From: Escherichia phage vB-Eco-KMB38
Reading direction: 5' to 3' (one strand)
DNA length: 64,000 nucleotides
Sequence record: OR525701.1
Below, in pieces: positions 2,047-14,916 of the stretch; position 1 is the first letter of the stretch, and the number at the start of each line of letters is the position of its first letter. The translations under genes were made by a program, and so were the position numbers. Below the pieces are notes generated by a model. That model was not told the origin of the DNA. It did no database searches and saw only the letters and a program-made list of their open reading frames with translations.

Positions 2047-2531
2047 ATATACGCTTTCCAAGTTCCTGTTTTAAATGTTGATATTACGCGTTTCGCGCGA
2101 TTGGGTGTCTGACGATACCATTTAGATTGGGCTAGATTTACTGCCGCTTCGTCCCAACGTTTCTGTTGAAGCATACGAAGAGAATTAGTAAAACCGGCGA
2201 CGCCTGCTACACCCATTTGGAAGACCATATTGACCAATGCACAACGACGAACCGCATCTAAAGAATCGTATACCGGTTTAAGTTTAGCATTACCCAAGAT
2301 TCCGCGAACGGCTTTATCAACGTCTTCATTAAATAGCTTTTCAGCCTCATCAAGGGTAATTGGACCGTTGCATTTACGGCCGATCATTCTGTCAAGTTCA
2401 GCTTTAGCTACGGCTAAAGATGGGTTCTTTGTTACTAAATGGCCTATGCCAATCGTCCAAAAGCCTTCAGTGTCTTTGTATAAAGTCAGTCTAAGACCTT
2501 CGTCATTACGAAGCATTTCAAATATATTCAT
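2043..2531 (-). CDS. e: Lysozyme (endolysin, T4 e)
   Basis: [32 protein letters not shown]... near-identical in pattern to T4 lysozyme; GGAGG RBS directly upstream of the MNIFEML start. Confidence 0.95.
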
Positions 2532-2565
2532 AATACCTCCCACGTTTATAGGAGGTATTTATTAC

Positions 2566-3024
2566 TTATAGGAGGGTAGTGAGCACCTTATATAATGATT
2601 TGCCCATTACATATTCCCATTGAGAAGGTTTAATTAAAGCGAATGCATCAAATTCAGGAATCTGACGTCCGTCCGGGAATGTATGATAGGAATTACAAAC
2701 ACTATTTCTGAATTGCTCGTGCTCTACAGGGATGGTATATAGGAACAGGTGAATATTCTTATTGTCTGAGTAATGATGTTCACCTAGGTCTTTCAGGAAG
2801 GCAGGGTCATATTGTGTAAACCCAGTTTCTTCTTCGCATTCACGAATAGCGGCTTCGATAGGAGATTCGCCGGGCTCGACACGACCTTTAGGAATATCCC
2901 ACCGATGAGCTAAAGAACCTTTAGGACGAGAACCAGTTACACGCCCCATGAATAATTCTTTATCTTCGGTAAGGAAAATAATACCAGCTGATAGTTCTTT
3001 CACTTTATTTTTCTTACTCATCAT
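2566..3024 (-). CDS. nudE: Nudix hydrolase
   Basis: Nudix box GRVEPGESPIEAAIRECEEETG; position immediately upstream of e as in T4 (e.1); start uncertain by 1-5 codons. Confidence 0.85.
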   Translation of the reverse strand: MMSKKNKVKELSAGIIFLTEDKELFMGRVTGSRPKGSLAHRWDIPKGRVEPGESPIEAAIRECEEETGFTQYDPAFLKDLGEHHYSDNKNIHLFLYTIPVEHEQFRNSVCNSYHTFPDGRQIPEFDAFALIKPSQWEYVMGKSLYKVLTTLL

Positions 3025-3512
3025 CTCAAATTCCTGCATTCAGTAATAAAACGTTCAACTTCATTATTCTTGGCCTTTATCTTGGCTTTATGTTCTTGTA
3101 AACTACTTTTAATAAGATTAATAATGATGGCGGCGGTACCGCCGCCAATGATGCCACCAACACCACTTATGATACTAGATGCTAATAAGATAGCAATAAT
3201 ATCAACAAAACCGAAAGAACTCACCTTAGTACTGAAAAACCATATAGACGGTGCAAATATAATCCATCCTGTTATCCATTGACACTTATTGAAAAACTTT
3301 TCAAGCTCAGCTTGAGTTGTTCGTATTACTTCATCGATAGGTTGATATCCATTAATGTATCTGTTCACGATAATACCTGCTGGCTGGTCGATTTTAAATG
3401 CTTGACAATGGCGTTTCACTAAGTATGATGGACATCCTGTCCAATCTATAGAATAATATGAAATACCTTCGTCGCCATCGTCCATGTTTGTCCAGTGAAT
3501 TTTATGTATCAT
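3021..3512 (-). CDS. Hypothetical membrane protein (C-terminal TM segment, tail ERFITECRNLR)
   Basis: ORF with hydrophobic stretch IIAILLASSIISGVGGIIGGGTAAIII; no recognised homologue. Confidence 0.5.
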   Translation of the reverse strand: MIHKIHWTNMDDGDEGISYYSIDWTGCPSYLVKRHCQAFKIDQPAGIIVNRYINGYQPIDEVIRTTQAELEKFFNKCQWITGWIIFAPSIWFFSTKVSSFGFVDIIAILLASSIISGVGGIIGGGTAAIIINLIKSSLQEHKAKIKAKNNEVERFITECRNLR

Positions 3513-4198
3513 TACCAGCCTTCCATAGGGAATTCCAGATAAACTTGGGCGTTGACACGAATTTCATTGGTAATCTTTTTAACTCGGTCTGTATTACGAG
3601 ATACACGTCCGAACCAACGCCATCCATTACTAATTGCACGAGAACCAGTGTGCCATGTTTGCCAATCAAACTGAAGAAGAGTACGATCTGGAGCTTCCCA
3701 TTTCTCTAGTTCGCCTTTTTCGATTTTTTCGAGGACTTCTTTGTGCCACTGGCGATAGATAAGTTCGCCATCAGGAATCTGACTGAACTCTGCAGTTCCT
3801 GTTGCAAAATGAGTAGGACACACATCAGCGTTAACAAGACCAAGAATATGTTCAGAATGGTAACGAGGGTTGTCATAATCAGGTTGTCCTGCAGTAATAA
3901 AGTGTTGACCTACCGGAATATCAGGGCGTGGTACATCGTCATGGTGATAACCTGGGATAGCAGGGTACCAACCAGGCATCAGCATGTGGACTCGTGAATC
4001 AAATACAACCTGGTCGGTGTTCCAATCATCAGGCAAGTTCATGATGAAGCTGCGAGTAATAGGACCGCCGTTATTATAAGCAAATTCTAAACTACAGTTA
4101 AAGAACATAGGCTCGTTCTTGATTTTATCATTAGAAATACCGCCGGCAAAACCACCTACTGCACGAGCTTGACTATTAAACACTTTAGAACTATTCAT
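3512..4198 (-). CDS. Hypothetical protein (228 aa)
   Basis: Long uninterrupted ORF; start codon adjacent to stop of upstream gene; function not recognised. Confidence 0.55.
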   Translation of the reverse strand: MNSSKVFNSQARAVGGFAGGISNDKIKNEPMFFNCSLEFAYNNGGPITRSFIMNLPDDWNTDQVVFDSRVHMLMPGWYPAIPGYHHDDVPRPDIPVGQHFITAGQPDYDNPRYHSEHILGLVNADVCPTHFATGTAEFSQIPDGELIYRQWHKEVLEKIEKGELEKWEAPDRTLLQFDWQTWHTGSRAISNGWRWFGRVSRNTDRVKKITNEIRVNAQVYLEFPMEGW

Positions 4199-4199
4199 A

Positions 4200-4505
4200 T
4201 TATTTTCCTCGACATTCTTTAATGAAATTTTCTAGATTGGTAGATTCAATAGCTTTTTTACGAGCTTCTGCGTGTTCTTCTTCAGACAATTTACGTTTAT
4301 AATTGACCCAGACATTATGGTCGAAACCAGTCGTGGCATATAATATCAATGCTCCAACGAATAGCAAAAACGGCGATAAGAATACAAAACCAGGAACACC
4401 ATCCATATCGTAAGCCTTTTGTAATACTGCAACAGAAAGAGCTACGTAAAAAGGTGATGCAAGTATTGTTAAAAGACCAATTCGGTTGGTTTCTGTTAAT
4501 TTCAT
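4200..4505 (-). CDS. Hypothetical small membrane protein
   Basis: Two hydrophobic helices; GAGGAG RBS; C-terminal ENFIKECRGK; downstream of PeSL promoter. Confidence 0.55.
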   Translation of the reverse strand: MKLTETNRIGLLTILASPFYVALSVAVLQKAYDMDGVPGFVFLSPFLLFVGALILYATTGFDHNVWVNYKRKLSEEEHAEARKKAIESTNLENFIKECRGK

Positions 4506-4520
4506 AATATTCTCCTCAAG

Positions 4521-4562
4521 TTGATAGGACTACTATAACATAGTCCTATAATTGTGTAAACA
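4521..4562 (-). promoter_or_regulatory. PeSL-type early promoter cassette (GTTTAC -35, extended -10 TGTTATAGT inside 10-bp inverted repeat)
   Basis: Plus strand gataggactactataacatagtcctataattgtgtaaac; near-identical copies at 5816 and 12439. Confidence 0.6.
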
Positions 4563-4573
4563 GTTTTGTGAAG

Positions 4574-5530
4574 TTATTTGAAAGGTTTTACCATATGGAA
4601 ATTTTGTTTGAAACGTTTGACGTAATCGTCATGTCCTAAGCGTTGGTACATACTTACAACTTTGCTGTAGTTTTCCCAGGCGTATTCACGGAACCAACCG
4701 GAGGTGATGCTTGTGCAAACTTTTTCTAATGCCATCATGAAACTGGCTTCAGAGTTAATTTCAAAGTTATTAGGAATCTGAGAACGTTCTAATGCTAGTA
4801 CACATGATTCTTCATATACACCGGCCAATTTGACCATTTCTGGTAACGATTCGAACTTCTCGCGTGAGGTCATGACTTCAGAACCATCTTTCATGTAAAA
4901 TGTATAAGCCGGACGGTCTGTTAGTGCAATGGCTTCGTGAATAGTATCATGGTCATATGTGTAGATGTCATCTTTAAAGAATGCGCTTTTAGAAGTGTCA
5001 AGAATCGGGTGAGCATAGTTCAAGGTTTCTTTCTGGCGTTTCAGCATAATTTCAGTAAGTTCATCGTTCAGTGTAACACCTTTACCACGAAGATACTGGA
5101 TATGGTTCATAGTCTTTAAAAAGAATGGATTATTTTTCTTGAAACGATGAGACATTTTAATTGCAAGACATATCTCAGGAGTTGCCCAGTAAAACCCGGT
5201 CAAACGATCTTTAGTCAAATTTTTCTTGGCGTATTTTAAAAGGTCATAAGAAGACGTGAAATCTTCAGGAGTGAGTTCACCGACTAATTCACGAACATTA
5301 GTGATTGCCGGAACAATATATGCTTCAAAATGAGTTTCGCGTCCATTATGGAAGCATTTGAAAACTTGGACATCAGGGTTATCTTGGTGAACATATACAC
5401 CCATCATTTGATTTTTGAATGCATTCCAAGAACCTTGGTCCGCAATAAAGTCCCAATCGCTATTTTTGATAGCGCTAGAATCAATAAGACCATGATAGTG
5501 AAGTGCACGAGAACCAATAACTAACATCAT
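4574..5530 (-). CDS. Hypothetical protein (318 aa)
   Basis: Long ORF with GAGGAAAATATT RBS; no recognised family. Confidence 0.55.
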   Translation of the reverse strand: MMLVIGSRALHYHGLIDSSAIKNSDWDFIADQGSWNAFKNQMMGVYVHQDNPDVQVFKCFHNGRETHFEAYIVPAITNVRELVGELTPEDFTSSYDLLKYAKKNLTKDRLTGFYWATPEICLAIKMSHRFKKNNPFFLKTMNHIQYLRGKGVTLNDELTEIMLKRQKETLNYAHPILDTSKSAFFKDDIYTYDHDTIHEAIALTDRPAYTFYMKDGSEVMTSREKFESLPEMVKLAGVYEESCVLALERSQIPNNFEINSEASFMMALEKVCTSITSGWFREYAWENYSKVVSMYQRLGHDDYVKRFKQNFHMVKPFK

Positions 5531-5558
5531 AATATTTTCCTCGGATTAATTCATCAAC

Positions 5559-5810
5559 TTAAATTTCACGACATGCGATATTATATTCATCCCATAGGTC
5601 ATCATGTGAAGCCTCTACCAATGGAACGATTGTACCGTTTATGTCTTCATTATAAGGGCAAATTGTACAGTGCGCATCTTCGAATCGGATGCCTTTGTGT
5701 TCAGATTTTTTATAACGCATATCGAATAACTTTGCAAACTTTTCACGAGTAATAGTTTTAGCAACTACTTCGGTTCCAATACTTTCGTAATAAATCATTG
5801 TGGACTCCAT
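5559..5810 (-). CDS. Hypothetical small protein with Cys/His cluster
   Basis: 83 aa, HCTICPYNEDING...H suggests possible metal binding; PeSL promoter directly upstream. Confidence 0.5.
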   Translation of the reverse strand: MESTMIYYESIGTEVVAKTITREKFAKLFDMRYKKSEHKGIRFEDAHCTICPYNEDINGTIVPLVEASHDDLWDEYNIACREI

Positions 5811-5815
5811 TTAAT

Positions 5816-5857
5816 TTGATAGGACTACTATAACATAGCCCTATCTTGTTGTAAACT
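5816..5857 (-). promoter_or_regulatory. PeSL-type early promoter cassette
   Basis: gataggactactataacatagccctatcttgttgtaaac, repeat of the element at 4521. Confidence 0.6.
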
Positions 5858-5860
5858 GTT

Positions 5861-6058
5861 TTAGCAAGAATAACTAGACGATACCCAGCCTTGAACAGTA
5901 ATGCTATTATTAGATAATGAGATTGCGTTCTGGAGATTCAGACCTGCGTTATCTTCAATCCATAATGTAACTTCTTCGCGTTCTTCTGTTGCAATTTGGA
6001 ACAGGTTTTCCAGGGCAGCTACTGCCGTACGTACAGCACAATCTAATTCACGAGACAT
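5861..6058 (-). CDS. Small protein, paralogue family member (ends GWVSSSYSC)
   Basis: 65 aa; shares C-terminal W-x-S-S-S-x-x-C motif with the next two genes. Confidence 0.5.
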   Translation of the reverse strand: MSRELDCAVRTAVAALENLFQIATEEREEVTLWIEDNAGLNLQNAISLSNNSITVQGWVSSSYSC

Positions 6059-6067
6059 ATGGTTTCC

Positions 6068-6340
6068 TTAGCAAGTGTGAGAAGATGCGATCCAACCACC
6101 AGTTTCGAGGCTCAGGTTGTAGTCGTATTGGTAAACGTCAGCCCATTCAGCATAGCCGTTTTTTGTACAACGTTCAAGATCGGCTTTAAGCTGTCCGGGT
6201 GAATGATATGTTCCACCCATACCATAAGCTGGATACAAGTCGAATGTTGTGTTTTGTTTATCAGCAATTTCTTTGGCAGCCTCAATAGCTGCATAGATTT
6301 TTGCTACAGCTTCAGCCAGTTCGGTTTGTTCTTTAGACAT
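6068..6340 (-). CDS. Small protein, paralogue family member (ends GGWIASSHTC)
   Basis: 90 aa; N-terminus MSKEQ; conserved C-terminal motif followed by TAAGGAA RBS of next gene. Confidence 0.5.
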   Translation of the reverse strand: MSKEQTELAEAVAKIYAAIEAAKEIADKQNTTFDLYPAYGMGGTYHSPGQLKADLERCTKNGYAEWADVYQYDYNLSLETGGWIASSHTC

Positions 6341-6349
6341 AATGATTCC

Positions 6350-6655
6350 TTAGCACAACGCAGAAGACGAAACCCAAGCACCTTCAGTAATAACGTAACC
6401 ATTACCTTCACGCTTAACATCGCCACCATTATTTTCAATTTCATCTTTCATCCACTGGGATACGATTTCACCCTTAGGATAATAAGTACGACCGCTACCA
6501 TAATCACCTACAGAAAATGATACAGAATATTGGTCTGCGATCTTTGTTGCTTCTTCTTCGATACGTTCAGCTTGATTCAGAAGTTTATAAATTGCATCTG
6601 AAGCGGATTTGGCATCATTAAACTCTGGTACTTTAATTTCAATAATCTTACTCAT
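6350..6655 (-). CDS. Small protein, paralogue family member (ends GAWVSSSALC)
   Basis: 101 aa; N-terminus MSKI; same C-terminal motif. Confidence 0.5.
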   Translation of the reverse strand: MSKIIEIKVPEFNDAKSASDAIYKLLNQAERIEEEATKIADQYSVSFSVGDYGSGRTYYPKGEIVSQWMKDEIENNGGDVKREGNGYVITEGAWVSSSALC

Positions 6656-7011
6656 TTTCTACATTCCTTAATAAAGTTTTCTATTGTTTCATTTTCACGT
6701 CTAGCTAGGAGTTCATTATAACTAATCATTTGAGAAGCGTAAACCTTTTTATTTTTCTTGTTATGGTTTATAAAATCGTAGTAAAAATAGACTACAGTAC
6801 AAAAGGATGCGATGGATGCAAAGGCTTGGGTATACCGTAAGTCCTGCCATTGGTCTGTGAATCCACCAGTGTTCCCTATAAATCCTAACACAACGCCGTC
6901 AATAAGAAATCCAACTAATCCAAAGGCAAATCCCATGCCAATACTCATAATAAAAATTAGAATGTTCTCACCAAGAGAAGGCCATACGGTTAAGAGTTGA
7001 GGTTTTTGCAT
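6652..7011 (-). CDS. Hypothetical membrane protein
   Basis: Hydrophobic segments; AAGGAAAT RBS; C-terminal IENFIKECRK. Confidence 0.55.
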   Translation of the reverse strand: MQKPQLLTVWPSLGENILIFIMSIGMGFAFGLVGFLIDGVVLGFIGNTGGFTDQWQDLRYTQAFASIASFCTVVYFYYDFINHNKKNKKVYASQMISYNELLARRENETIENFIKECRK

Positions 7012-7385
7012 CTTATTTCCTTAACGAATTCCATAGCTTCTTCATATTCATACTTTTTAACAGCTTCATCATACTGAGCTTGGGCTTTTGCGCACTGAAC
7101 TTTCCACTCGCGAACTCGAGCTCTGTGATGACGGCCTTGGTGCCAATATCCTGCCCAATTAATAGGCATTAATAAAAACGGTACAATAAGTGGTGCGACG
7201 AACATTAATGAAAACGCTGCATCAGACGATATAACTTTATTGGAATCTAAAATAGCTCCTATAATCATAAAGATTAAAAATGCTAAAGCTAAAATAGGGC
7301 CAAATAGTACTTCGTTTGGGATTAATTTACGTTTGTATTCGTATGCCCATGGCTTAATTGGCATGTACAGGGTTGGCTTTGACAT
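6990..7385 (-). CDS. Hypothetical membrane protein
   Basis: ORF-track start at 7415 is TTG; first ATG gives MSKPTLYMPIK; two hydrophobic helices; C-terminal EFVKEIRCK. Confidence 0.5.
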   Translation of the reverse strand: MSKPTLYMPIKPWAYEYKRKLIPNEVLFGPILALAFLIFMIIGAILDSNKVISSDAAFSLMFVAPLIVPFLLMPINWAGYWHQGRHHRARVREWKVQCAKAQAQYDEAVKKYEYEEAMEFVKEIRCKNLNS

Positions 7386-7977
7386 ATTCTCTACATTCCA
7401 TAATAAATTGCTCAAGGATTAAATTGTTAGTGAAATTAGGACTAACAACCATAGTTTCATAAAGCGCATCAATAGCACTTAAAGCATCAACTCTTTTAAG
7501 CAAAGGCTTGCCTTCATACATAGTTTCAGAATCGACGATTAACGTAAAGTAATATTTTTTATTATCGACTAGAACTTCTGTGTCGATATAAAACATATTA
7601 GACCTCAGAAGCTTATCTCTAAAACCATAATAATCTTCTGAACGTTCGCTGATATATTCCCATTCAGTGTTTAAACAACAAACAGACCACGTAGGAGCAA
7701 CGAAATCAGTGAATCTAATATCATGGTCTGCAACTAGTTTAGCAATAGCTCCGATATCATGAATCATAATACCTGGGGCTAATAAAGATTTTCTGCTATG
7801 GCTAGCCGTTTTCTCAGTGGTCTCATAAGAAGCTGACCAGTACCATTTACGTCCGGTTGCAACATATCGTAATGAATCAACTAAAGACGTAGGTGGATTT
7901 ACCTTATCTCGGAACTCTTCGAACATCGAGTCAATATCATTATTTTGGTTTCGCATGTTAACTCCTTTATCATCCAA
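7354..7977 (-). CDS. Hypothetical protein (207 aa)
   Basis: ORF with C-terminal EQFIMECREY motif overlapping next gene start. Confidence 0.5.
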   Translation of the reverse strand: MDDKGVNMRNQNNDIDSMFEEFRDKVNPPTSLVDSLRYVATGRKWYWSASYETTEKTASHSRKSLLAPGIMIHDIGAIAKLVADHDIRFTDFVAPTWSVCCLNTEWEYISERSEDYYGFRDKLLRSNMFYIDTEVLVDNKKYYFTLIVDSETMYEGKPLLKRVDALSAIDALYETMVVSPNFTNNLILEQFIMECREYVKANPVHAN

Positions 7978-8005
7978 AAGGAGGACCGGAGTCCTCCGTA
8001 TTATT

Positions 8006-8599
8006 TTATTTCAAAGAGTTAATATATTCTTGTACATCAGCAGAAGTGGTTTCGACACCGGCTGGAGTACCATTGAACGTTTCAACACGAGTCAGAGTGT
8101 CTTCGATATCAACCTTAGTCAGTGCAGCGATTTCAATTACATCATCGGCCGTAGAGATACCAAGGGCATTGGCTGCTCGAGTTTCACGAATGTATTCGAG
8201 TTTGATTGCCAGATTCTGACGAGCATCATCAAGTTCAACCACCTTACGAGCAATTTCAATTCGCATAGCGGCATACCCGTCGGCTTTTGTATTAAGTTGT
8301 TCGGCAGTTCGACGATACAGAAGACCAAGCTTAGCATGCATGGTAACATCTTGTCCTTCGGCCAAGAGCTTACGAATTTCACGTTCCTTAGAAGCGGCTT
8401 GTTTATTCTTTTCAATAACAAGTTCGCGAATACGTTTTTCTTCATTAATAGATTTAACAGAAGCCGTTTTTAGTTCTTTGATTTGGGTAATCAACTTATC
8501 TGCAGCTGCGTTATACTGTTCTTCGACAGTCAGATTTTTAGCCATAGCAGTACCCAGTTTAGTGCGGATGAATTCAACAAGTTTCTTCAGTGTGTTCAT
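8006..8599 (-). CDS. Coiled-coil protein, possibly PspA/IM30-like
   Basis: Start at MNTLKK after AAAGG RBS (ORF-track start is 5 codons upstream); heptad-rich, charge-alternating sequence resembling PspA architecture; assignment is inference. Confidence 0.45.
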
Positions 8600-9605: not shown

Positions 9606-10070
9606 TTATTTAATTTGTTTAGCAGACCAGATACGGTCTTTAATAAGTTTTTGGATATCTTCAACATACTCAAGGCTATGAGCGTGAGGATTATCTTTGA
9701 AACTATGTGCTCGTGCCAGTTTCTGGCCTTCTGTTTTGATTACTAAAAGCTCTTTAAGAATTGCTTCATACTTAGAAATAATTCCTTTGGCGATATTTTT
9801 TTCTTGAGCTGTTTTAGGGTCCGCTTTTGGCGCAGGTGCTTTACCTGTAGCTTTCTGGAACAATTCACCTGATGCAGCTAGGCTTTTAAAAACTCGGCTA
9901 ACAGTATTAGCATTAGTAAAACCTTCGGCTTTAAAATCTCTAATAAAACGGAAACGTTCTTCATCGGAGGCGTCTTTGTAAGAATATTTACCTGCTTGAA
10001 TTGCTGCAATCGCAGCGGCTTTTACATCTGAACTAGATTGTTCAGTCAAAAATTCAGCGTATGATTTCAT
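9606..10070 (-). CDS. Internal protein (Ip-type) with capsid-targeting sequence
   Basis: N-terminus MKSYAEFLTE; 154 aa. Confidence 0.55.
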   Translation of the reverse strand: MKSYAEFLTEQSSSDVKAAAIAAIQAGKYSYKDASDEERFRFIRDFKAEGFTNANTVSRVFKSLAASGELFQKATGKAPAPKADPKTAQEKNIAKGIISKYEAILKELLVIKTEGQKLARAHSFKDNPHAHSLEYVEDIQKLIKDRIWSAKQIK

Positions 10071-14325: not shown

Positions 14326-14916
14326 TTAGCGCAAGGAAGGATGTCTAGAAATGGATTTAGATTCGGCAGCTTGACGTGGTTGTTGAGATACAATGACTTC
14401 GCCATCCTTTTCTATCGTCATATACGCGTAGTGAATAGTTGCTACGCACGTAACGGCAGGATCAGAGTCTTCAGTGTAACTAAATTCAATTTCGCTCAAA
14501 TCGGAAATCCATGGTTTATAGAAATTTGCCGTCAAAACCACTTCAGTCTTATTGTTGTTTAAAATGTGCAAAGTAACAAACTCAGGACCATCGGAGTGTG
14601 CCGTATTATGGCCGGTTATATAGTTATTAGTGCTGAGCATCCATTTATACATGTTCATCCAGGACGTCATGTCTTCATCAACTATAAATCGTACAATAAA
14701 AGGGTCATATTCAAATGTAGTGCCTGCACGCATTGCACGACCTAGCCCCATTGTGCCAGTCACAGTTTCAACAACAGGAATTCTCACACCTGGCAGTGGA
14801 GCCGTTTGGGCATTGAGCACAAAACCTGAAGTTCGTGTACTATCCGGGATATCCACAACAAAGTTTGTTATATTTGTTTGGTTAAAAATCTGTCTCGCTG
14901 GACGAGTCATAAGCAC
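14326..14916 (-). CDS. 3: gp3 tail completion/sheath stabiliser
   Basis: Synteny between genes 1 and 2; start codon uncertain. Confidence 0.6.
   Translation of the reverse strand: MLMTRPARQIFNQTNITNFVVDIPDSTRTSGFVLNAQTAPLPGVRIPVVETVTGTMGLGRAMRAGTTFEYDPFIVRFIVDEDMTSWMNMYKWMLSTNNYITGHNTAHSDGPEFVTLHILNNNKTEVVLTANFYKPWISDLSEIEFSYTEDSDPAVTCVATIHYAYMTIEKDGEVIVSQQPRQAAESKSISRHPSLR

Follow-up and report, generated by a model that had tools for sequence, protein, structure and literature searches.

Five early genes of Escherichia phage vB-Eco-KMB38 (OR525701.1), all on the minus strand of the 64,000-nucleotide stretch analyzed here (the window), end in a recurrent peptide of the form F-[I/V]-x-x-C-R. 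This peptide is very probably an element under selection at the protein level, and it may be a portable C-terminal docking helix, a short linear motif carried by unrelated, fast-evolving early proteins; judging from sequence, we put the probability of such a function at about 0.55. The carriers lie in the early block between nudE and e.6, in a region (2500–8100) that is 100% identical to Escherichia phage AlbertHofmann (Bas47, genus Mosigvirus). The order of the corresponding early region in T4 is e, nudE, e.2 through e.8, and tRNAs. By comparison with T4, four of the carriers are named e.2-like, e.3-like, e.4-like, and e.5-like, and the fifth is a 101-amino-acid (aa) open reading frame (ORF) without a counterpart in the T4 e region examined.

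The regular expression FI.ECR has four matches in a six-frame translation of the whole 64 kb, all of them in the tails of the e.2-like, 101-aa, e.3-like, and e.5-like proteins; the e.4-like tail is a variant of the same motif. Because 300 first-order Markov shuffles matched the expression 0.027 times on average and once at most, chance similarity, which an initial annotation of the sequence had named as a possible refutation, does not account for the four tails. Other matches to looser patterns in the window are in non-coding frames; one of them, on the plus strand at 14515 (NPWFIEICR), runs antisense to a gene recognized by eye as gp3 and was rejected as chance.

The five tails quoted in the initial annotation are present on the minus strand as given there, with motif codons at 3033–3059, 4209–4235, 6658–6684, 7011–7037, and 7390–7416 (the coordinates in that annotation are ORF ends). 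It had assigned them to at least five adjacent genes; the five tails exist, but only e.5, e.4, and e.3 are contiguous, and other genes intervene before the 101-aa ORF and e.2. Nor is the motif always at the very C-terminus, as in e.5 it stands 11 residues before the stop. The e.4 tail, quoted with its IRCK, keeps its place as a variant carrier, but this Cys is not the motif Cys, the corresponding position being Ile. A weaker member (NIACREI at 5559) was rejected: its orthologues end without C-R (NDYVAEI in JS10 and NTYCYEI in CIP9), and its register does not fit F-[IV]-x-x-C-R. The 83-aa ORF that carries it (5559–5810, minus strand), ending in EYNIACREI, is excluded from the motif set.

Conservation across T4-like phages

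Among the 12 lineages compared, about 36 motif instances were identified in ten T4-like lineages, always in the same nudE–e.6 block. The set is drawn from Mosigvirus, Tequatrovirus, Dhakavirus, a Klebsiella phage, Kanagawavirus (two phages), Moonvirus, Tegunavirus, an Aeromonas Biquartavirus, and Pseudotevenvirus. Absence from orthologues in related phages would have spoken against the motif, and the opposite is seen: the T4 and Tequatrovirus orthologues retain it, as do more distant lineages. In Tequatrovirus, including T4, the proteins end in NLNNFITECRKLK (e.2), EFV[IS]DCRKIK (e.3), KFVKESRCKSQ[SN] (e.4), and EKFVKECREYVKAITIPSK (e.5), each written here up to the stop codon. There are four motif genes in JS10 (Dhakavirus), five in the Klebsiella phage, four each in CIP9 and PEi20 (Kanagawavirus), five in Merlin (Moonvirus), and three in phiR1-RT (Tegunavirus). 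Aeromonas phage avDM5 has a single motif gene, as does Enterobacter phage EC-F2 (Pseudotevenvirus), in which the motif is FIHSCK, 25 residues before the stop. A degenerate form (IIHQAR or AIHEAR) occupies the homologous place in the e.5-type proteins of a Muldoonvirus. One Slopekvirus has nudE, without e.6 in that neighborhood, and no motif gene was found there.

In a scan of the minus-strand early regions of T4 (1–76 kb and 120–169 kb), the coding-strand motif occurs within 30 residues of an ORF end only in e.2 (as a remnant), e.3, e.4, and e.5; plus-strand matches in T4 are antisense and were rejected as chance. The e.2 gene of the reference T4 genome (67472–67960 of the T4 record) is annotated with 102 aa, compared to 162 aa in other Tequatroviruses, from which it differs by a −1 and a +1 indel 78 nucleotides (nt) apart, with loss of the transmembrane (TM) segments. 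Its unannotated remnant frame still ends in NNFITECRKLK, just ahead of nudE. Either T4 e.2 is truly disrupted, or the record preserves a sequencing error of long standing.

Selection on the protein sequence

The initial annotation had offered two explanations, a protein-level tail shared by a family of small membrane proteins and a conserved nucleotide junction element. The first is borne out insofar as the tail is concerned: amino acids are kept across orthologues and lineages, and codons vary freely. Across the instances, Phe is encoded by TTT and TTC, Ile by ATT, ATC, and ATA, Val by all four of its codons, Cys by TGT and TGC, and Arg by all six; even the two identical ENFIKECR peptides in the window differ at four of eight codons. 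In pairs of carrier orthologues, amino acid identity is 61% over the nine motif codons versus 39% over the rest of the same proteins.

By the test that the initial annotation had asked for, the conservation is that of the protein. Where the amino acid is the same, the codon differs in 29% of cases in the motif; the last nine codons of genes lacking the motif give 34%, and other sites 39% (82 reciprocal-best pairs; Fisher p = 0.49 for motif versus gene ends and 0.13 for motif versus elsewhere). A seeming shortage of synonymous change within the motif (29% versus 48%) vanished in comparison with the 3′ ends of genes lacking the motif, which are the proper control. Synonymous sites in the motif are therefore no more constrained than those at other gene ends in these packed genomes.

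As the initial annotation had observed, the Shine-Dalgarno (SD) sequence and start of the next gene border on or overlap the motif DNA in all five cases in the window. The position of these signals is not fixed. Which motif codons bear the SD depends on the gene (K-E, R-G-K, or C-R-N; in e.2 of JS10, the E-E codons GAGGAA), and the spacing between the last base of the Arg codon and the next ATG is −1 to +10 nt in the window and −1 to about 70 nt across lineages. Residues that do double duty with the SD or start of the next gene are K-E or K-G (AAGGAA or AAAGGA), the trailing K-stop (AAATGA), R-G-K in the 101-aa ORF, and the Cys of e.4. Translation signals are thus laid over variable and trailing residues because the genes are tightly packed, a consequence rather than a cause of the motif. 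The nucleotide repeat at the motif extends over only 22 nt, the motif codons themselves, in a direct repeat covering three copies, and the motif junctions are overlapping gene ends with neither a promoter nor a hairpin.

Diversity of the carriers

The 36 carriers and two degenerate Muldoonvirus e.5-type proteins (38 proteins) were compared with their tails removed and fall into more than 20 BLAST clusters. Only two pairs are joined by hhalign (e.2 with CIP9_126 at 79%, and e.5 with CIP9_234 at 67%), in a comparison of low power made with shallow alignments. The carriers belong to about 11 PHROGs, all without known biochemical function, of which phrog_2203 is labelled only "membrane protein". 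One or two TM segments are predicted in 21 of 36 carriers, followed by a K/R-rich stretch (for example NHNKKNKK, YKRKLSEEEHAEARKK, or HQGRHHRARVREWK). The other 15 have no predicted TM segment and appear soluble; these include the approximately 200-aa e.5 family, which always follows e.6, a family of about 95 aa, and singletons. As far as sequence comparison can tell, the motif is not the tail of a single family, so this part of the first explanation, a family of small membrane proteins, does not stand. The membrane carriers may be very diverged paralogues.

Motif anatomy and a proposed docking function

With the 36 instances aligned on Phe (position 0), the consensus is hydrophobic(−3)-[E/D/N]-x-F(0)-[I/V](+1)-x-x-C(+4)-R(+5), after which come 1 to about 25 further residues, mostly basic or of arbitrary type. 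Hydrophobic residues make up a fraction of 0.89 at −3, 1.00 at 0 and +1, and 0.97 at +4; at all other positions from −7 to +3 their fraction is at most 0.31, with mostly charged residues, and at +5 it is zero. Arg occupies +5 in 33 of 36 instances and Lys in the remaining three, Cys occupies +4 in 30, and Glu occupies +3 in 14. With this i, i+3, i+4, i+7 spacing, a single face of a two-turn helix would present L/V/F, F, I/V, and C, with Arg beside them. The pattern is that of an amphipathic segment, hydrophobic at these positions, polar between them, and predicted to be helical. In the e.5-like protein, AlphaFold2 places a helix at residues 179–194, across the motif, with a low predicted local distance difference test score (about 55 there and 59 overall) from a three-sequence alignment, at which a free and a packed helix cannot be distinguished.

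In some orthologous groups the Cys is substituted by V, M, I, S, or A (NVRRK, EMRK, EIRCK, ESRCK, and QAR/EAR). Packing or another hydrophobic contact therefore fits better than thiol chemistry. In the membrane carriers, the K/R-rich stretch after the last TM segment, taken with the positive-inside rule, leads us to infer that the tail is cytoplasmic. The recurrent tail would then be a helix that ends the basic segment at the cytoplasmic face of the inner membrane and, in membrane and soluble carriers alike, ties its protein to one common partner or ties the carriers to each other.

Alternative explanations

The carriers, or all of the membrane ones, could instead descend from one small membrane protein by tandem duplication, with the tail as its slowest-evolving remnant and no role as a module. 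The carriers are confined to one block, and most have one or two TM segments, a length of 100–165 aa, and the same layout of TM hairpin, basic linker, and tail. There are also weak phrog_2203 profile links for the 101-aa protein, Kleb_136, Kleb_99, and Merlin_112, besides the hhalign match of e.2 to CIP9_126, and both e.3 and e.4 begin with M-[QS]-K-P-x-L. Common descent accounts for the membrane carriers on this evidence, but the soluble ones (the e.5 family, the family of about 95 aa comprising CIP9_99, Kleb_94, and Merlin_95, and phiR1-RT g130) have no TM segment and no detectable similarity to them. Even with common descent, the greater conservation of the tail (61% versus 39%) demands a function. 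We consider this explanation unlikely as a replacement for the docking helix.

A chemical or processing role has still less in its favor. Among the polar positions, Cys and Arg are the best conserved and could be a site of modification or metal binding, basic tails such as CRK and CRKIK resemble basic C-terminal degrons, and the core F-I-x-E resembles the capsid targeting sequence (CTS) MKTYQEFIAE, which the T4 protease gp21 cleaves after Glu, so that cleavage of the I/L-x-E type (FIKE|CR) is conceivable. However, several orthologous groups have V, M, I, S, or A in place of the Cys, which is at odds with a role in chemistry, Glu is found at +3 in fewer than half of the instances whereas the CTS keeps its Glu in every lineage, and early proteins of the inner membrane are improbable prohead cargo. 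Such a role is quite improbable.

It is more doubtful again that the tail is a nascent-chain arrest or pause peptide, acting in the ribosome tunnel to tune termination and re-initiation and so couple translation of the next, overlapping gene. T4 does use a nascent-peptide signal in gene 60 bypassing, and the amino acid conservation of the motif is independent of the rest of the protein, as in arrest peptides. Moreover, 22 of the 31 instances with an identifiable downstream ATG end within 10 nt of the next start, even where the carrier reads on for another 5–15 codons (e.5, e.4, and CIP9_99). The distance from motif to stop nevertheless varies from 1 to 25 residues, the next ATG is as far as 20–70 nt away in JS10, CIP9, PEi20, Merlin, avDM5, and EC-F2, and there is no fixed register with a P-site event. 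The pattern is the face of an amphipathic helix, not a Pro/Trp/Gly-rich arrest signature.

The least probable explanation is the second one of the initial annotation, in which a nucleotide junction element, whether a signal for translation initiation or coupling or a scar left by recombination (for which a promoter-early stem-loop, PeSL, would be one example), imposes the peptide on unrelated proteins. We reject it: the motif DNA does overlap the SD and start of the next gene in the five window cases, three copies share the 22-nt repeat, and AAGGAA, AAAGGA, and AAATGA are frequent at K-E/K-G and K-stop, but every conserved residue varies in codon (Arg through all six), synonymous divergence is not below that of other gene ends, the SD and ATG shift relative to the motif, nucleotide similarity ends at the motif codons, and the PeSL-like repeats (4518–4567 and 5813–5862) lie in intergenic gaps rather than at motif junctions, so that only the incidental dual coding of some residues survives of it.

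The carrier genes

The e.2-like gene (3021–3512, minus strand, 163 aa; phrog_2203) encodes a soluble N-terminal part, two predicted TM segments, a K-rich linker, and the tail VERFITECRNLR. The SD of nudE (AGGAAT) falls on the C-R-N codons (TGCAGGAAT) of its motif, and orthologues in Tequatrovirus and JS10 retain the motif. The annotated nudE start (window 2566–3039, MQEFEMM...; T4 stretch 4036–4491, MQEIKM...) uses an ATG within the upstream motif codons (GAATGC). A second ATG (MMSKK... or MKTLSAG...) has an AGGAA SD 7–8 nt upstream and, in T4, an ATGA overlap with the e.2 stop, and it looks like the real nudE start.

The 101-aa protein (4200–4505, minus strand; phrog_9798) has two predicted TM segments and ends in LENFIKECRGK. 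Its R-G-K-stop codons (CGAGGAAAATAA, in which R-G-K is CGAGGAAAA) also serve as the SD of the next gene, which starts at 4198. The e.3-like gene (6652–7011, minus strand, 119 aa; phrog_2330) encodes a membrane protein with the tail IENFIKECRK; the next gene has its SD on the K-E codons (AAGGAA) and shares an ATGA with the stop of the e.3-like gene.

The e.4-like gene (6990–7385, minus strand, 131 aa, two predicted TM segments; phrog_2604) has the variant tail AMEFVKEIRCKNLNS, in which Ile replaces the Cys of the motif (Ser in T4); its K-E codons, AAGGAA, are again the SD of the next gene. The Cys of IRCK is encoded by a TGC that overlaps the e.3 start (A-TGC-AAA read as ATG CAA AA, M-Q-K), and it is present because this overlapping start forces TGC. 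The e.5-like gene (7354–7956, minus strand, 200 aa; phrog_2607) encodes a predicted soluble protein ending in LEQFIMECREYVKANPVHAN. The e.4 start is 4 nt beyond its Arg codon, and its final 11 residues are an out-of-frame overlap with e.4.

No carrier matches a family in a local copy of Pfam, and searches of PDB sequences with e.5 and e.6 returned nothing significant. Word-index database searches gave 15 matches for e.2 and three for e.5, all relatives at 81% identity or more; phmmer with e.5 against 1.84 billion representatives recovered only the Mosigvirus and Tequatrovirus forms, and searches of IMG/VR for the locus found seven loci. Single-sequence searches yield little because the carrier families evolve too fast.

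e.6 as a candidate partner

The e.6-like gene (8006–8599, minus strand, 197 aa) is not a carrier but provides the context of the block and a candidate partner for the shared tail. In 10 of 11 lineages the gene immediately downstream of it is a motif gene, and in the eleventh it is a degenerate one. Its predicted fold is a long helical hairpin, with Foldseek matches that are Vipp1/PspA-like. That e.6 is the partner is speculative and, in our estimate, rather unlikely; a host protein is equally possible.

One could tentatively extend this to the nudE–e.6 block as a whole, which might be a phage membrane module. In it, e.6 would be a self-assembling PspA/Vipp1/ESCRT-III-like protein, and the tail helix would be the address tag by which a changing set of small inner membrane proteins (e.2, e.3, e.4, the 101-aa protein, and others), together with soluble e.5, recruits or regulates e.6, analogous to PspB/PspC with PspA or MIM with MIT. 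Alternatively, the tag could mimic a host C-terminal peptide such as the FtsZ tail. We regard this proposal, too, as doubtful.

Other features of the block

A second C-terminal motif family is found in the same block. Three tandem small acidic ORFs (5861–6058, 6068–6340, and 6350–6655, minus strand; phrog_899) end in W-[VI]-[SA]-S-S-x-x-C (QGWVSSSYSC, GGWIASSHTC, and GAWVSSSALC). Two to five paralogues ending in SS(S)xxC are present in every other block-bearing lineage examined, including avDM5 and WSPA.

A 50-nt direct repeat in intergenic gaps (4518–4567 and 5813–5862, 86% identical) combines an inverted repeat (ATAGGACTACTATAACATAGTCCTAT) with a minus-strand early promoter of the T4 type (TTTACA-N17-TATAGT). 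This PeSL-like repeat precedes the 101-aa ORF and the 83-aa ORF. A 17-nt initiation region, CGAGGAAAATAWTATGA, occurs on the minus strand at 4195–4211, 4502–4518, and 5527–5543 (a recurrent translation-initiation region, GAGGAAAATAWTATGA) and is found where the 228-aa, 101-aa, and 318-aa genes start. None of the three has an equivalent in the part of the T4 e region that was compared, and they are about 77% identical in nucleotides to JS98-type phages; they therefore look like a mosaic insertion. The 228-aa protein (3512–4198, minus strand; phrog_1843) and the 318-aa protein (4574–5530, minus strand; Pfam DUF7277 and DUF7275) are kept between motif genes in many lineages, and some GenBank records label them phytanoyl-CoA dioxygenase and nucleotidyltransferase.

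Significance

T4 e.2 to e.5 and their relatives are among the large set of T4 early genes without known function, and their common C-terminal peptide, which is under strong selection, is the first trait to connect them. A common tail predicts one common target, so that about a dozen orphan families would become a single testable question. Besides the CTS, it would be the second portable terminal peptide on unrelated proteins in the hyperplastic regions of T4-type phages. The locus is also a clean case of a protein motif and the translation signals of the next gene on the same nucleotides in which the RNA signal does not drive the peptide. If the partner is e.6, or a host division or membrane-stress protein, the tails would reveal that T4-like phages deal with the inner membrane of their host in a new way.

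Comparison with known systems

PeSL cassettes, in which an intergenic stem-loop is followed by an early promoter of the form TTTACW-N17-TAYWAT (PMC4122927), have been proposed to mediate gene shuffling in T4-type hyperplastic regions (PMC2839356, PMC4122927). Like the motif, they are short sequences that recur at gene boundaries in the same hyperplastic regions. A PeSL, however, is an intergenic nucleotide element, whereas the motif is coding, conserved as amino acids, and accompanied by neither promoter nor hairpin. A search of a literature library found no mention of the peptide strings or of a shared tail in T4 e.2–e.5, and nothing relevant on T4 e.2–e.6 or on phage PspA/ESCRT-III proteins.

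Short amphipathic terminal peptides are known from the cargo-loading peptides of encapsulins, the encapsulation peptides of microcompartments, the MIM motifs of ESCRT-III (which bind MIT domains), and the tails of PspC and PspB (which bind PspA); in each case they are found on diverse proteins encoded beside a self-assembling or scaffold protein. The motif resembles these docking helices in being the only feature shared by diverse proteins, but its sequence pattern matches none of them, and e.6 is only tentatively similar to the PspA and ESCRT-III scaffolds.

The conserved C-terminal peptide of FtsZ (DIPAFLRKQAD in E. coli) binds ZipA, FtsA, MinC, and SlmA. Its I-x-x-F-L-[R/K] has the same spacing as the hydrophobic-x-x-F-[I/V]-K of the motif, and both are located near the C-terminus after a flexible or charged linker. 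The FtsZ tail lacks C-R, however, and the likeness, which comprises only four positions, is a lead rather than a finding.

The CTS of the T4 internal proteins (N-terminal MKTYQEFIAE) provides the nearest parallel. It, too, is a peptide of about ten residues, conserved as amino acids, on unrelated and rapidly evolving proteins of hyperplastic regions, and its core, Y-x-x-F-I-x-E, is similar to the L-x-x-F-I-x-E of the motif. In the window, the CTS (MK[TMS]Y.EF[IL].E) begins five genes on the minus strand (293–622, 648–962, 1026–1286, 1765–2046, and 9606–10070); it is kept in 9 of 11 lineages scanned, with no match in the avDM5 or EC-F2 loci. The motif was nevertheless rejected as a CTS. The latter is N-terminal and invariant (MKTY.EF[IL].E), with an obligatory Glu as cleavage site, and is carried by soluble proteins packaged in the head, whereas the motif is C-terminal, requires C-R, has the equivalent Glu in only 14 of 36 instances, and is found mostly on membrane proteins. 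The CTS is thus the closest known relative in kind, and we file the shared tail of the nudE–e.6 block as a new terminal peptide module.

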